From contig OZ287750.1 in NCBI GenBank assembly GCA_965649765.1, forward strand, positions 102,858,001-102,922,000: DNA of 64,000 bases, given 5' to 3'. This document shows positions 10,072 to 30,695 of the stretch, one piece after another (position 1 is the stretch's first letter; every line of letters begins with the position of its first letter). Origin of the DNA: Bispira polyomma. Taxonomy: Eukaryota. The position numbers and the translations under genes were made by a program. The notes under the pieces are model-generated. The model was not told the DNA's origin and ran no database searches. It saw nothing but the letters and a program-made list of their open reading frames with translations.

Positions 10072-10135
10072 AGTAGTAATAGGTCCGTATTACGCCCCAG
10101 ATGGTCCGCCTAAATCGGCCCGCCTAAATCAGCCC
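10072..10135 (+). repeat. Left terminal inverted repeat of the Polinton (~60-65 bp)
   Basis: agtagtaataggtccgtattacgccccagatggtccgcctaaatcggcccgcctaaatcagccc matches the reverse complement of the right end with few mismatches. Confidence 0.95.
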
Positions 10136-11619
10136 TGTTTAAATTGTCTTTTTGAGAGTGAGTTAATTTTTTTTAGTGGCAGAAAGTGTGTGAGTTGTAT
10201 TAAGTATGTAGGAGCAGCAAGGGGTTTTAAGAGTGATTTTTTTGTGATTAATGATATTTTATATTTCCAGAACTGATTAGTTCTGGTTTAAAAATAGTCC
10301 AAGTCCTTCTTTTGAAGTTCTTCAGATCACACATACATCGGACATCCAGAGTCGATTTGGTTGAGTGATTTTGGGGTAGTTAAGGGATTGTTGACGTTTT
10401 GTTTTATGGTGTTTAGTCATAATTATTTTGTCGTTGTTTGTTTTATAGTGAGAGTTGAGGTGTTATTTTTAGTGAAATGAGTTGTTTAATTAGTGGTTTA
10501 TATTATGTATTATTGTTTTGAGAAGTTGTTTTAGTTTATAACAGCGAGTTGGTTTTGTTTTAGAATGAGAGTGCGTTTGCGTGTATGAATTTAGTCGTTT
10601 TTAGTAAATTTTTGGTGACGTAACTGTTTTTTGCGTGCCATGCGCTAAATGTGTATTGTGCAAGACTAAACACCATGATAAAGTTTATGTCTTGTTGAAA
10701 TAGTTTTGTTCTTTCTCGAGTTGAGACTGGTGAATAATTACACTTTAATCGAATCGAATTGATGTGTGTTGTATTCACCCCATAATATTATGTCTTTTGT
10801 TTTTTTTGAGTTAACTATTTTTTTTTGTTTTTTACGCGTATTGGGTTACGTTTTGAGATTATGAGAAAGCTTAAACACCATAATTATGGAGTTATGGTGT
10901 TGTTTAACAGTGTTGGATTTTATTTGTTTGGTGGTTTGGTGATGACTTATGACATATTAAAATAAGCATTCTTGCAGCATAAAAGTATTTTTAAAGGGTT
11001 AAAAAAATTTTATTTTTAAAATATTATTCTCAAAAAAAAAAAATGGTTGTGGGGTTTATTTTTAATATGTTTAAGGAGATGACCTTTCGCCGAATCCCCA
11101 TAAAAAAAGTATTTTCAAGTACTTGAAAATAGTTGATAATCGTAATTTCAGTAGGTGACTATTGGGATTAATAAGGCAAGGGTGTTGTGTAAGATTATGG
11201 TGTTTAGTCAAAATGAGAAAACGATAGTTTGTTTAATTTCTCCTGGTTCTGGTGTTATTTTTATTGGGATAAGTTTTTGTGTTGGTAGAGTAGAATTAGG
11301 GGGTTTTTCTTTTTTATACTTATTAGGTATTCAATTGCGCGTGTTGTGTTTATTTTTGTCTTTTGCTTGGAATATATGTTATATATTTTGTCAAAAGTCA
11401 AACGTAGCGTTACGTATACGTCTTGCATTGTTTTGTCTCATTGAACAACAAGTTTTTTTTTGTGCGAATAGAAATTCCACTAAAGAACAAGAGAGGTTTT
11501 TTTTTTAAAAAAAGGGGTTTTAAATATTTGAGAATCAATTTTACAATTTATGTTTTTTGGGTCATTGGTTTGATAATAGTTTGATTTGGTAAAGGAAAAG
11601 TGTTTGGGAACGAAAAGCG

Positions 11620-11755
11620 TTTTCCCGAGTGTAAAACGTTTTAGTATTTTTTGTAAGGCGGTTTTTTTATTATTCCCGAGTGTAAAATGTTTTAGTATTT
11701 TTTTTGTAAAGCGTTTTTTCATATTTCCCGAGTGTAAAGCGTTTTAATATTTTTG
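11620..11755 (+). repeat. Three direct repeats upstream of the IAP gene
   Basis: ttcccgagtgtaaa(a/g)..ttttagtattttt recurs at ~11622, ~11673 and ~11725. Confidence 0.8.
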
Positions 11756-11898
11756 GAAAACTGTTTTAACTTGAAACCGAAACTAGATTTTGGGTTTTTA
11801 GGTGGAGTCTTTTATAAATTACGATGTATTGTTTTGGGGTGTATAAATAAGTTTTTTTTTTTTTTTTTTTTGTGGGTTATTTTTATTTATTGAAAATT

Positions 11899-12336
11899 AT
11901 GGCTACTGTAGAGGGTTTTTCTTTTGGGATAAATAAGGTTGGGAGTTTAATTCACAAACCTCCTTCTGAAACAGATGGTAGTAAAGTCAATCAGGGGTTT
12001 ATGTTAGGTGGAAAACCAACTATGTGGGAATATGGGAAACTGGTTACAAGTTTTTCAGACAGGCTTTTAACATTTCGCTCTTGGCCCAAATCTATGCCTA
12101 TAACTGGGCATGAATTAGCCCATGCTGGATTTAGGTACAGTGGATATGGGGATAAAGTAGAGTGTTGTTGGTGTAGTATATCACTTTGTCAATTTGAAAA
12201 GAATGATGATATTTTTTATGAGCATTTTTCATTCAGTCCCCATTGTGAGTATTTAAACATAACTATTGGAGATACTTTGGGTGATGTATTGAAATGTCGT
12301 GCAAAGGCTATTCCAGATAAAACCCTTAGGCATTAG
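11899..12336 (+). CDS. Single-BIR-domain inhibitor-of-apoptosis-like protein (145 aa), no RING
   Basis: RLLTFRSWP...LAHAGFRYSGYGDKVECCWC-x16-H-x6-C is a canonical BIR zinc motif. TATAAATA lies at 11842-11849 and the ATG at 11899. Confidence 0.93.
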   Translation: MATVEGFSFGINKVGSLIHKPPSETDGSKVNQGFMLGGKPTMWEYGKLVTSFSDRLLTFRSWPKSMPITGHELAHAGFRYSGYGDKVECCWCSISLCQFEKNDDIFYEHFSFSPHCEYLNITIGDTLGDVLKCRAKAIPDKTLRH

Positions 12337-12447
12337 AGATGAATGGAGATTGTTATATATATATATATTGGCTGGTGGTGATTTTGGTTATTAATGTAAA
12401 TTATTTCACAAGGGTGGTGGTGTATTTAAAAGAGGTTTTAGTTGTTT

Positions 12448-12630
12448 ATGGAAAACGAAAACATTTTACAGGCTTTGGTGATAATAAAATTTTGTTTGTT
12501 TTTATTTTTTGTCTGTTGTGCTGATCCAAGGGGTCGTAAGTTTATTTATGCTTTGATGTTAGGTTTAATGTTGGTTTATATGACACTTCAACAAATATTT
12601 TGTTTGATTTTTTTAGATGAGGTGTCCTAG
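12448..12630 (+). CDS. Possible small two-TM membrane protein
   Basis: MENENILQALVIIKFCLFLFFVCC-ADPRGRK-FIYALMLGLMLVYMTL has two hydrophobic stretches and is packed between the IAP and PolB. The G/T skew could also produce hydrophobic ORFs by chance. Confidence 0.35.
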   Translation: MENENILQALVIIKFCLFLFFVCCADPRGRKFIYALMLGLMLVYMTLQQIFCLIFLDEVS

Positions 12631-28465: not shown

Positions 28466-29053
28466 CTACATATTTGAAAGGTAATACTTTAACAAAGAGG
28501 GTAAACTCCTCACTTCATCTGAACTGACTTTTGCCAAACTCAATTCCTCTAATGACTTTGGCTTAAAGCCATTTTCCAAACGAAAAGCCTTTTCTTGAAT
28601 TTTCAAAAGTTCAAATAGAAGTTTCTGAGTAACTTTCAATCCTGGAGTTATAACTAAGCTAAACTCTTGATACATGTCTAAAGACTGCCAACAACAATAG
28701 GAATCCATTTCACAATACTCACAACTACATTCTAGTTTAGTTTCCTCATACTGAAATTTATAACAATTGCACTTATTCTCCAATAAGCTTACCAATTCTA
28801 AAGTTTTTCGTTTTGGCAAATCCACCATGCATTCAAATGTGACACTATCAAATACATGAAAAGACCCAAGTTTACTCACAACAGCAAACCAATTTCCAGT
28901 CAATTCAATATCCCTTTCCTCCCCTAAAATCACACCCTCCTTAACATCTCTCATTTTGTTTTTATCAAACATCAAAACAAAATCTTTTAAAACTGTACTA
29001 ATAGGCCCCTCCATAACTATCAAATCCGTCGCTGACAAATATAAATTAGTCAT
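28466..29053 (-). CDS. Accessory protein with C-terminal BC-box/SOCS-box-like motif (paralog A)
   Basis: C-terminus FRLENGFKPKSLEELSLAKV...VRSLPSLLKYYL, alignable with ORF 29577-29963. Confidence 0.6.
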   Translation of the reverse strand: MTNLYLSATDLIVMEGPISTVLKDFVLMFDKNKMRDVKEGVILGEERDIELTGNWFAVVSKLGSFHVFDSVTFECMVDLPKRKTLELVSLLENKCNCYKFQYEETKLECSCEYCEMDSYCCWQSLDMYQEFSLVITPGLKVTQKLLFELLKIQEKAFRLENGFKPKSLEELSLAKVSSDEVRSLPSLLKYYLSNM

Positions 29054-29576
29054 GCTTACTGCCTTTTCAAAAACAGACTGAATCAAAGACAAAAAAAAAT
29101 TTCTTTCACCAAAACTCACATAGCAACACATCATGTTTTAAATATAATTTTTACAAAATTTTATAACGAAACCAACAACTCAAAGTAACTGACATTATAA
29201 CTAACCCAAAACTTTACAAACACAAACGGATTCTCTTCACAGAATTTATTTTTAATGAAACAGGCAAACTTTTTACATCCAAATAGTTTTCGTTATCTTT
29301 TGAAACCAAAGTAAATCTAAAAGATCTTACTTTAAATTAACCCATTTAAATAACGACATATTTTGGAAATGATAAATCCTGAAAGTCTAAACAATAAATC
29401 ACAACTGCACCTATTCTTCAAATACTCAAAAGCAAAACACCCGCAACATAACATCTACCACAAGTATTAATCTCCATCACTTCCAATATACAAATTAAAT
29501 CTAAATGCTCACTCCTTAAAGCTAAATCTGAAATTTGTTTATAACTATCCATTTCTATCACAGTCAATCTAAAAAA

Positions 29577-29963
29577 TTAAAAATTCAATGCCCTCAGAGC
29601 TTGCAAAATACCATTATGATGAGAAACTAAAAAGGAAACAAAAGTATACTCCTGAATCCACAAAGGTCTATGATAGTTTAACCAACAACTGCAATAATCT
29701 TGCAAATATTTTGGAAGCAAATGATAGTCAAAAATATTTTTTGCACACAACTCTTTTAATGACATAGGACGAAACCCCACTTCCAACTCAAACATCAACT
29801 TAGTTATTTCCATAGCCTTTAAAATAACTTCAGTTGTTATCTGCTTTCCTGGATACAAATCCAAACCCTCTCGTTGAAAAATATAAATAAAATCCCAATC
29901 ATAATGCACGCTACAAAAACATTCATGCCCCGTCAAACTCACCACACCCATTCTACCTTTCAT
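29577..29963 (-). CDS. Accessory protein with BC-box/SOCS-box motif (paralog B)
   Basis: FELEVGFRPMSLKELCAKNIFDYHLLPKYLQDYC contains an SLxxLCxxxI BC-box followed by an LPxxLxxY cullin-box-like motif. Confidence 0.68.
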   Translation of the reverse strand: MKGRMGVVSLTGHECFCSVHYDWDFIYIFQREGLDLYPGKQITTEVILKAMEITKLMFELEVGFRPMSLKELCAKNIFDYHLLPKYLQDYCSCWLNYHRPLWIQEYTFVSFLVSHHNGILQALRALNF

Positions 29964-30044
29964 TTTCCCAAATATAATTTAAAATTCCTTATCTCTCACT
30001 AAAAGCTCACTACTAACAAAACCCCAAACTTGAAACCAAACAAC

Positions 30045-30420
30045 AACAAATTTTATCCCCTCATTAAAATACCAAGTCTGTAAACTTTTTATTGTTCCAA
30101 AAAAAAACGAAAACCCAAATGTTATCACCTCATAAAAATACCGAGTCTGTAAAATTATTCCCATTCGTGAACAACCAAAAAACAACTAATTTTATCTCAT
30201 TAAAATAATGAGTCGTGTTAAAACTTTTACTTGAAAAACAAAAAAAAGTCGCAAACCAAAAACTCGAAACTCAACAACAAATTTTATCTCCCAATTAAAA
30301 TACCGAGTCTGTAAAATTATTTATCCCCTCATTAAAATAGCGAGTCTGTTAAATCTTTTAACAACGAAACCAAAAACTTTTCACGACAAAACGTTTTTGT
30401 GATATTCCCGAGTCTAATAC
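30045..30420 (+). repeat. Sub-terminal imperfect repeats near the right end
   Basis: tttatc(cc)ctcattaaaatac(c)gagtc(t)gtaaa-like units recur about five to six times. Confidence 0.75.
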
Positions 30421-30617
30421 ATTTTACCAAAAATGGCGTTTCTCTGCACTCATTATGTCAACCCTATATAAACGAGATGTTCCACTCCTCACTTCACATA
30501 AGGCCCTGCTGGGCCAGGAACTAAACTCCATCAATTTTCCAGTCCTTCCTGGGCCTGGGCAATTATAATAGTCCCACAAAAAAAGTCCCACCTCACCTAC
30601 TACTTCATTTAAATTTC

Positions 30618-30695
30618 GGGCCGATTTAGGCAGACCGATTTAGGCGCGCCAATTTAGGCGGACCATCTGGGGCGTAAAACGGACCTATTACTACT
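30618..30695 (-). repeat. Right terminal inverted repeat of the Polinton
   Basis: Reverse complement reads agtagtaataggtccgttttacgccccagatggtccgcctaaattggcgcgcctaaatcggtctgcctaaatcggccc. Confidence 0.95.

Follow-up and report, generated by a model that had tools for sequence, protein, structure and literature searches.

The 64,000-nt window of Bispira polyomma DNA analysed here contains, at positions 10072–30695, a single element that starts with AGTAGT and ends with ACTACT. Its terminal inverted repeats, the left one on the forward strand (10072–10135, with an (AGT)2 end and 14-nt subrepeats) and the right one on the reverse strand (30632–30695, with an (ACT)2 end), are 94% complementary across 64 nt, with 3 mismatches in 59 nt. 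The hexamer AATATA abuts them on both sides, at 10066–10071 and 30696–30701; the end sequences, the 6-bp flanks and the complementarity of the arms thus bear out the terminal repeats and exact target-site duplication described in a first-pass annotation of this DNA. That annotation had also proposed a search for an empty-site allele. Two paralogues of the host repeat have both flanks joined over one 6-bp site; the uninterrupted target is thus seen in paralogous repeats. The 6-bp duplication was made by integrase-type insertion into the host repeat. Terminal inverted repeats with (AGT)2/(ACT)2 ends together with a 6-bp target duplication define Polintons in the available text of PMC8097293, and this element has the same Polinton/Maverick (adintovirus) termini. 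It also encodes the Polinton core set of protein-primed PolB, rve integrase with C-terminal chromodomain, packaging ATPase, protease and double-jelly-roll (DJR) major capsid protein (MCP).

As annotated at first, the replication and virion genes (PolB, ATPase, integrase, MCP and protease) all lie on the forward strand. They are preceded there by a single-BIR IAP-like gene of 145 aa (11899–12336; Pfam BIR, E 5.7e-18), in which no RING was seen and which is found in eight of nine sibling copies. Accessory genes had been assigned exclusively to the reverse strand, which is correct for six others and wrong for this one. The broken gene for protein-primed PolB (12731–16563) was recognised from sibling comparison and from polymerase motifs, located with patterns that we take to be those of PolB. 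Within it lie what are presumably OTU-type motifs (Cys at 13688, His at 13937) and a VSR-like insert (near 15013–15360); Pfam matches neither of these, nor PolB itself. Because OTU is a standard domain of Polinton pPolB (PMC11071308), the OTU-like motif is probably part of the usual polymerase and not cargo. A separate OTU gene was found by Pfam in none of 124 stop-to-stop segments of the element, and the earlier reading of an OTU-like region as cargo is abandoned. Downstream are an A32-type packaging ATPase (17088–17708; Pfam Pox_A32, E 8e-6), an ORF without a Pfam match that we take to be penton-like from a motif and its position (17963–18412), and two conserved ORFs of no assigned function (18487–19483) upstream of the integrase. 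The integrase with its C-terminal chromodomain (19569–20703; Pfam rve 4e-9, Chromo 1.3e-7) is followed by the MCP gene, which lacks its start (20708–21865), and an adenain-type maturation protease (21919–22368; Pfam Peptidase_C5, 1.6e-6). The MCP has 75 homologues, the best at 62%; the named ones are F54H12.2-like, one carries PF21738, and comparison with phages gave no match.

The reverse strand begins, from the right end, with box protein 1 (29577–29963), which carries a BC-box motif and LPxxL. What is left of a third box gene and a 73-aa ORF (29200–29553) separates it from box protein 2 (28466–29134), which has a BC-box-like motif, with Ser replacing Cys, and LPxxLxxxL. A BC box followed by a Cul2-type PhiPxxPhi, a pattern defined post hoc, occurs in four of the six box proteins tested and nowhere in 2650 aa of forward-strand ORFs. 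Pfam SOCS_box does not match the box motifs, and their best real match is KLHDC3 337–360 (E 1). BC-box/Cul2-box motifs are plausible, and the proposed BC-box adaptors hold up as leads. So does the spliced Cys-rich gene at the other end of the arm, a plausible two-exon zinc/LC8-motif gene. Predicted exon 1 (24800–25002, reverse strand) is Cys/His-rich, and the phase-2 donor at its end is compatible with the acceptor of predicted exon 2 (23996–24386, reverse strand); the phases fit in seven of nine same-family copies, and the base following the acceptor varies only synonymously. Exon 2, interrupted here by a premature stop at 24206, encodes an acidic/Pro-Ser region with a TQT (LC8-type) motif near 24320. 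A TQT motif in a disordered region defines LC8/DYNLL ligands in the part of PMC3078936 available; the motif recurs in ten loci from at least three families, and one of these motifs matches the VSRGTQT given there.

Another reverse-strand gene (27461–28294) encodes a 277-aa protein with a C-terminal CxxC..H..C motif and is broken near its end in this copy. Residues 1–116 model as a Pur-alpha/PC4 fold, with Pur-alpha repeat I–II as the top match (Z 12.8, r.m.s.d. 2.6 over 116 residues; next match 8.6). In the model a single chain carries two beta-sheet/helix repeats in tandem, the arrangement of type I of the Pur-alpha/PC4-like superfamily (PMC7549692), whereas the identity to Pur-alpha I–II is 9% and a helical domain with the Cys/His motif follows. 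Sequence searches with this protein returned nothing from a 5.8-billion set or from IMG/VR; one Atlas cluster, 31% of whose members have PC4, scored 0.85, a lead only. The gene previously called PC4-like stands as a lead whose model is of Pur-alpha type.

Three further ORFs of this copy are fragments of a single gene (25626–27131, reverse strand; about 510 aa) that two frameshifts have split and whose product comprises a superfamily-3-helicase-like core, a low-complexity linker and a C-terminal Cys/His finger. The fold derives from one model built from nine sequences, with a mean pLDDT of 50 (55–85 in the matched part). Against 48,161 chains, the top nine matches were all superfamily-3 helicases (Z 9.6–6.2), led by papillomavirus E1 (Z 9.6, r.m.s.d. 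3.4 over 147), and further fold comparisons with the same model agree. At this low model confidence, the helical bundle and AAA+ core fold of the superfamily are present; the Walker A signature GxxxxGK[ST] is found in none of the nine members having the site. Residues 1–130, where the N-terminal HUH endonuclease of parvovirus NS1/Rep would be expected, mostly have pLDDT below 60 and give long, low-TM alignments to CRESS Reps. Sequence searches of Pfam, PHROGs and PDB found nothing, Atlas returned weak and uninformative bacterial clusters only, and five public relatives share 26–40% identity. The spacing from loop to Walker B, 38–42 as against 43 in 15 parvovirus NS1 proteins, had suggested a specifically parvoviral origin; local and global profile–profile alignment (hhalign) to these NS1 proteins gave no support (probability 0.1, with 43 of 60 shuffles equally high), and we rejected it. 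No NS1 above the cut-off was found in this genome. The model of the large gene thus points to a superfamily-3 helicase fold lacking the glycines of Walker A, an assignment that sequence profiles do not confirm.

The two arms converge at 22457–22688, where AATAAA signals occur on the forward strand at 22457, 22487 and 22511 and on the reverse strand at 22525 and 22683; the sign of the GC skew flips near 22 kb. The arms would be two transcription units that run inward from the ends and terminate near 22.5 kb. Convergence on a repeat-rich spacer, as first described, is confirmed by a tandem array of about 17 copies of a 47–49-nt unit (23070–23881), which differs in length among copies, is seen only within copies of the family and probably lies in the 3' UTR of the reverse-strand arm. 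A duplicated non-coding unit of 113 nt (27141–27345) separates the two largest reverse-strand genes. Sequences of the family are also present in contigs, of undefined kind, from three runs of one study, which shows presence only.

This copy is heavily decayed. About 270 bp (~273 bp) are missing from PolB at 14437/8, judged against three siblings, and ~840 bp at 20715, judged against all four siblings holding the region; the latter stretch contained the MCP start together with ORFs of 78 and 128 aa. A second penton-like ORF of the family is absent here. Stops or frameshifts interrupt most genes: in PolB, in-frame stops (13022, 13832 and 15673) come on top of frame changes, and the integrase and its chromodomain are in different frames. 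What was annotated as a complete provirus with two convergent arms is therefore a Polinton provirus with such arms whose coding capacity is no longer intact, owing to stops, frameshifts and two deletions. The proposed functions of the arm and of the IAP are no longer possible for this copy itself.

The history of the arm was followed in related copies. Its genes are present in nine of nine siblings, always opposite the core (exon 2 in eight of nine); the absence of accessory ORFs from other copies, which the annotation had named as counting against its view, did not occur. Selection was measured as the reference-free share of changes at third positions in up to ten copies, which was 0.54 for the core and 0.34 for a non-coding control. 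On the forward strand, selection is seen for PolB (p 1e-9) and the penton-like ORF (third-position excess, p 2e-4) with six copies, and for MCP (p 7e-7) and the IAP (0.47, p 0.007) with up to ten. Against the flat control, six of the eight arm segments tested show an excess: the share is 0.52 for the Pur-like gene (p 6e-8), 0.62 and 0.60 for the spliced-gene exons (exon 1, p 4e-10), 0.40 for the helicase-like core (p 0.006), and 0.47 and 0.43 for the box genes (p 0.009 and 0.016). The IAP, exon 2 and box protein 2 gave no significant signal with six copies and became significant with up to ten. Purifying selection, also raised beforehand as a point on which the annotation might fail, accordingly holds for most genes of the arm, although neither the 73-aa ORF (25 changes) nor the C-terminal tail of the large gene has a third-position excess. 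Eight divergent loci of this genome were reached through the Pur-like gene; six hold Polinton core genes, and in all six this gene converges on MCP. It is the one arm gene retained even in families at 30% MCP identity. The reverse-strand arm is thus no secondary insertion but a module passed down within the lineage and subject to selection during its active period.

We consider it probable that the element is the decayed remnant of an adintovirus-type Polinton in the germ line, and that its reverse-strand arm resembles an early region in supporting replication and controlling the host. The Pur/PC4-fold protein would bind the strand that protein-primed synthesis displaces, as DBP does in adenovirus and single-strand-binding proteins do in phages, and the superfamily-3-fold protein, presumably no longer hydrolysing ATP, may serve in DNA binding or as a scaffold. 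Recruitment of Elongin BC–Cul2 for degradation of host targets could fall to two or three BC-box proteins, the spliced zinc protein may bind the LC8 hub, and the BIR protein from the forward arm would curb apoptosis.

An unlikely alternative is that the arm is a transcription-regulatory unit, in which the Pur/PC4 protein would co-activate transcription or bind RNA and the helicase-like protein would be a Rep/E1-derived promoter regulator, with neither working at the fork. Pur-alpha and PC4 do act in transcription, and their folds serve also in RNA binding and mRNA control (PMC7549692); the missing Walker A glycines fit a non-motor role, and three arm products have zinc fingers. Protein-primed replicons, however, use dedicated single-strand binders (PMC8276246), no other candidate for which was seen in the element, and the Pur-like gene alone persists in families whose MCP identity is as low as 30%. 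Slightly less likely again is the annotation's view of a complete provirus carrying a purely anti-host toolkit directed at apoptosis, ubiquitin and possibly ADP-ribose pathways. The BC-box-like motifs, the BIR gene and the Cys-rich spliced gene are indeed present, and IAP and oncogene-like genes are known from adintoviruses in the accessible part of PMC8502044; yet the IAP is on the forward strand, this copy carries deletions and stops, and the two largest arm genes have nucleic-acid-handling folds in their models. The predicted NADAR-like domain also fails: NADAR (PF08719) matched none of the 124 segments and none of 13 sibling ORFs, although with the same model at least 150 NADAR domains are recognised in other parts of the genome, and neither NADAR nor OTU folds were among the matches listed for the modelled parts of the large gene. 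NADAR and a stand-alone OTU are rejected for lack of Pfam matches in the segments searched. With a superfamily-3-helicase-like fold in the largest gene and a Pur-type single-strand-binding fold in the PC4-like gene, the arm reads at least equally as replication support. That the ORFs are functionless passengers, whether chance frames or a later insertion, is very improbable and already largely refuted, for despite nearly no database matches and the weak or missing signal in the 73-aa ORF and large-gene tail, the arm keeps its gene order in siblings and divergent families, six segments exceed the control, and the large gene has public relatives.

The preferred reading, an early-region-like module in a decayed Polinton, can be set against known systems. 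In the available parts of three sources (PMC8502044, PMC11071296, PMC8097293), Polintons/Mavericks and adintoviruses share with this element the (AGT)2/(ACT)2 repeats, the 6-bp duplication, a pPolB, an rve integrase ending in a chromodomain, the ATPase, protease and MCP, an IAP upstream of PolB and a size near 21–24 kb; the putative OTU-type motif of the pPolB and the duplicate penton-like genes would be further common features. Nothing about the provirus, its IAP or its convergent layout is unusual for the group; likewise, the annotation's preference for a true virus over a pure transposon is in line with selection on MCP, yet is already the standing view for Polintons. Vertebrate Mavericks, as those parts describe them, have two convergent core modules with accessory regions on either side, whereas here one strand carries all core genes and accessory genes form the entire opposite arm. 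The same parts contain no Pur-type, Walker-A-less helicase-like or BC-box proteins. Polinton accessory genes are mostly unannotated and their replication helper proteins not known; a conserved, selected arm with a Pur-type binder offers a candidate, open to experiment, for the single-strand binding on which other protein-primed replicons depend.

We infer that the arm would work like an adenovirus early region (DBP, E4orf6), with a single-strand binder for protein-primed replication, spliced zinc proteins and BC-box recruitment of Elongin–Cullin ligases, which adenovirus practises (PMC3355856). The likeness is one of functional analogy without demonstrated homology: the binder has a Pur/PC4 fold and not the DBP fold, and adenoviruses have no integrase. 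With superfamily-3 helicases (papillomavirus E1, parvovirus NS1/AAV Rep, CRESS Rep), the large gene shares the modelled fold at residues 133–300 and the Walker spacing, and one of 15 NS1 proteins has a similar Cys/His finger; it differs in that all members seen lack the Walker A glycines, no NS1 profile matches, and the gene resides in an integrating dsDNA element with a DJR capsid. More tentatively, the lineage may have assembled a self-contained early region from parts unrelated to adenovirus genes, pairing a Pur-type binder for protein-primed replication with a helicase of E1/NS1/Rep type that had been acquired from a small DNA virus and was long kept as an ATPase-dead regulator. If true, a helicase-fold protein lacking its motor motif would add to the instances in which genes were captured between Polintons and small DNA viruses. 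Such a history would mirror the parvovirus–Polinton recombination proposed for bidnaviruses, in which a Polinton PolB is joined with a stand-alone parvoviral S3H (PMC4061559), much as PolB and a modelled superfamily-3-type helicase fold occur together here.

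The Polinton runs from 10072 (AGTAGT...) to 30695 (...ACTACT) with AATATA on either side, and the terminal inverted repeats reported by the first-pass annotation are present and short: 94% complementary over 64 nt, the first 59 nt containing 3 mismatches. Because AATATA is frequent, with 122 sites across the 64-kb window, the target-site duplication was put to test. Two paralogous host repeats in this genome, at C11:54.738 Mb and C7:18.736 Mb, have the sequences matching either flank joined across a single uninterrupted 6-bp site; thus, the insertion of the element into a host repeat is real. 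The target (window 9900-10071 and 30696-30860) is a dispersed AT-rich repeat with about 10 further matches for each flank. The host genome is that of an animal, with Skp1 and Elongin C genes split by introns. Beyond the element, a 104-aa ORF on the minus strand (31456-31770) has no Pfam match and resembles part of the tyrosine recombinase of a DIRS-type element. Short sub-terminal repeats at 11621-11775 and 30033-30354 have a CGAGTSTGTAAAA-like core in common, in opposite orientation, and are possible promoter or origin elements.

With the left end as query, 16 matches were obtained in the genome, and nine same-family copies (siblings) were retrieved for comparison. Among the five with both ends located, the 6-bp duplication is exact in three, holds at five of six positions in one and is missing from one. 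The first five siblings are mostly 84-97% identical to the window across genes.

The plus strand carries a BIR gene (match E 6e-18), PolB, an A32-type ATPase, a penton-like ORF, two conserved ORFs, an rve integrase with chromodomain, MCP and an adenain protease. Since the BIR gene lies here, the IAP belongs to the plus arm, and the accessory genes are not all on the minus strand as first described. Nor is the provirus complete: PolB is interrupted by stops at 13022, 13832 and 15673 and changes frame, ~273 bp are absent at 14437/8 relative to three siblings, and ~840 bp are absent at 20715 relative to all four siblings that span the region. In siblings, the stretch lost at 20715 comprises a 78-aa ORF, a second penton-like ORF (each present in 8/9) and the start of MCP. 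Two regions of PolB, neither with a Pfam match, were assigned by motif: Cys/His positions at 13688 and 13937, which we take to be OTU-like, and an insert at 15013-15360 resembling a VSR-type nuclease. The OTU-like region had been counted as cargo; the sole such motif located is inside PolB, where, according to PMC11071308, a vOTU domain is standard in pPolB and probably cuts off the terminal protein. Mollusc pPolB2 also bears a VSR insert, as bioRxiv 2023.08.22.554363 describes. The element is a genuine but broken Polinton of known kind.

Its two-arm layout is ancestral. The Pur-like gene (27461-28294), the large gene (25626-27131), the Cys-rich gene (24800-25002 and 23996-24386), a 73-aa ORF and both box genes are found in 9/9 siblings on the strand opposite the core, with exon 2 of the spliced gene found in eight; one sibling lacks the ATPase-to-protease stretch, and another has no IAP within the fetched DNA. 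Selection was measured reference-free, by counting allele changes per codon position and reporting the third-position share, which is 0.34 in non-coding DNA and 0.54 in the core. The Pur-like gene reaches 0.52, the two exons of the spliced gene 0.62 and 0.60, the box genes 0.47 and 0.43, the IAP 0.47 and the core of the large gene 0.40; no excess is seen in the tail of the large gene (0.33) or in the 73-aa ORF (0.32, 25 changes). Most arm genes show selection, and their presence in every sibling argues against secondary insertions or chance ORFs.

Pfam and database searches gave no match for the 277-aa Pur-like protein. Its structural model (pLDDT 66-88 over residues 1-110) aligns best with Pur-alpha repeats I-II (Z 12.8, rmsd 2.6 over 116 residues), and the folds ranked next also belong to the PC4 superfamily, in line with the earlier PC4-like label. 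Pur/PC4 domains bind single-stranded DNA or RNA and unwind independently of ATP (PMC7549692), and protein-primed replicons employ such binders (PMC8276246).

The large gene comprises three window ORFs, at 26577, 25928 and 25626; it reads as a single frame of >500 codons in two siblings and has five unnamed public relatives at 26-40% identity. Family scans were blank, and hhalign against 15 NS1 proteins did no better than shuffles. Although the model as a whole has low confidence (mean pLDDT 50), its nine best matches among 48,161 chains are without exception superfamily-3 (SF3) helicases: papillomavirus E1 comes first (Z 9.6, rmsd 3.4, 147 residues), with B19 NS1 and AAV Rep behind it. Foldseek with the same model, and so not independently, returned E1 from PDB and, from BFVD, CRESS Rep/parvovirus NS1. 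An SF3-derived fold is probable, although the blank family scans and the hhalign result speak against it. None of nine members has GxxxxGK at the P-loop position, where two divergent members retain PPSxKS. At the Walker B position, 38-42 residues downstream, the sequence is W[VLE][NE][GA], compared with a spacing of 43 in 15/15 NS1 proteins; in this comparison one member was mis-matched by the pattern and two lacked the site. Given an SF3-derived fold, loss of the ATPase is very likely.

The proposed BC-box adaptors are candidates. BC-box and LPxxL, a post hoc pattern, occur together in 4/6 box proteins tested, including both from the window, and are absent from 2650 aa of plus-strand ORFs; no Pfam SOCS_box match was obtained. 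Motif spacing and shape are closer to the Cul2 box (PMC3355856) than to the Cul5 box. In box protein 1 of the window, however, the spacer is 4 residues shorter through a loss. Among real profile matches, the best is to residues 337-360 of the Cul2 receptor KLHDC3, at E 1.

Splicing of the Cys-rich gene, also proposed earlier, is consistent with a predicted phase-2 donor retained in 7/9 same-family copies and an exon-2 acceptor retained in 8/9 and in 3/4 divergent loci; the base following the acceptor is G or A, giving Leu either way. Exon 2 has a TQT motif at 10 loci, one of which reads VSRGTQT, as does the optimal LC8 ligand of PMC3078936. Within the predicted intron, two short AG-preceded stretches (24490 and 24620, minus strand) are conserved among siblings and could be alternative micro-exons. 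The NADAR-like domain did not hold up: the Pfam model found it in 0/124 segments and 0/13 sibling ORFs, though it scores at least 150 domains above the Pfam cut-off elsewhere in the genome, for example at G000:C7:2977128 (150/150 scored candidates). Many of these dispersed domains lie within open frames of ~410-450 aa, which suggests a mobile element carrying NADAR.

Eight divergent loci were located via the Pur-like gene, and 20 kb of each was fetched. Polinton core genes occur in six (MCP identity 29-60%), in all of which the Pur-like gene aims at MCP from the opposite strand; the 20 kb of the other two contained no core genes. Families at 55-65% core identity still contain portions of the 73-aa, box, large and spliced genes, arranged in an unchanged order. 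The IAP changes position, lying behind PolB in two divergent families, one per strand. The 47-49-nt array (23070-23881) is family-specific and variable in length; as the first minus-strand AATAAA past exon 2 lies beyond it, at 22683, the array is probably within the 3' UTR of the minus arm. An older divergent Polinton harbours a sibling copy at L090:9692 (G000:C10:47146691), which breaks the older element's helicase-like gene. Divergent families have an extra ORF near the arm start (L071:8726-8998, minus; L073:500-886, plus), which looks to encode a signal peptide and an LRR N-terminal cap.

In the mechanism that we propose, both arms would be transcribed inward from the element ends. The Pur-like protein would bind the single strand for protein-primed replication, and the large gene product would be a motor-dead regulator of helicase fold; box proteins would recruit Elongin-Cul2, the spliced gene product would bind LC8 and the BIR protein would block apoptosis.

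The literature searched, in which subscription journals are thinly covered, yielded no Polintons with PC4/Pur/SSB, a SOCS box or an inactivated NS1-type helicase; supplementary genome maps may already label these arm genes under neutral names. The layout and the IAP are ordinary for Polintons. IAP and oncogene-like genes are known upstream of PolB (PMC8502044), and chromodomain integrase and duplicate pentons (PMC11071296), convergent modules, end motifs and capsid-gene selection (PMC8097293) and the bidnavirus scenario (PMC4061559) are already published; S3H is known in Polinton-like viruses (PMC4642659), and helicases are sporadic in coral polintoviruses (PMC11131425). What is new beside these systems, and worth testing, is that the conserved accessory arm encodes both a Pur-type protein and a helicase-like one devoid of Walker A.
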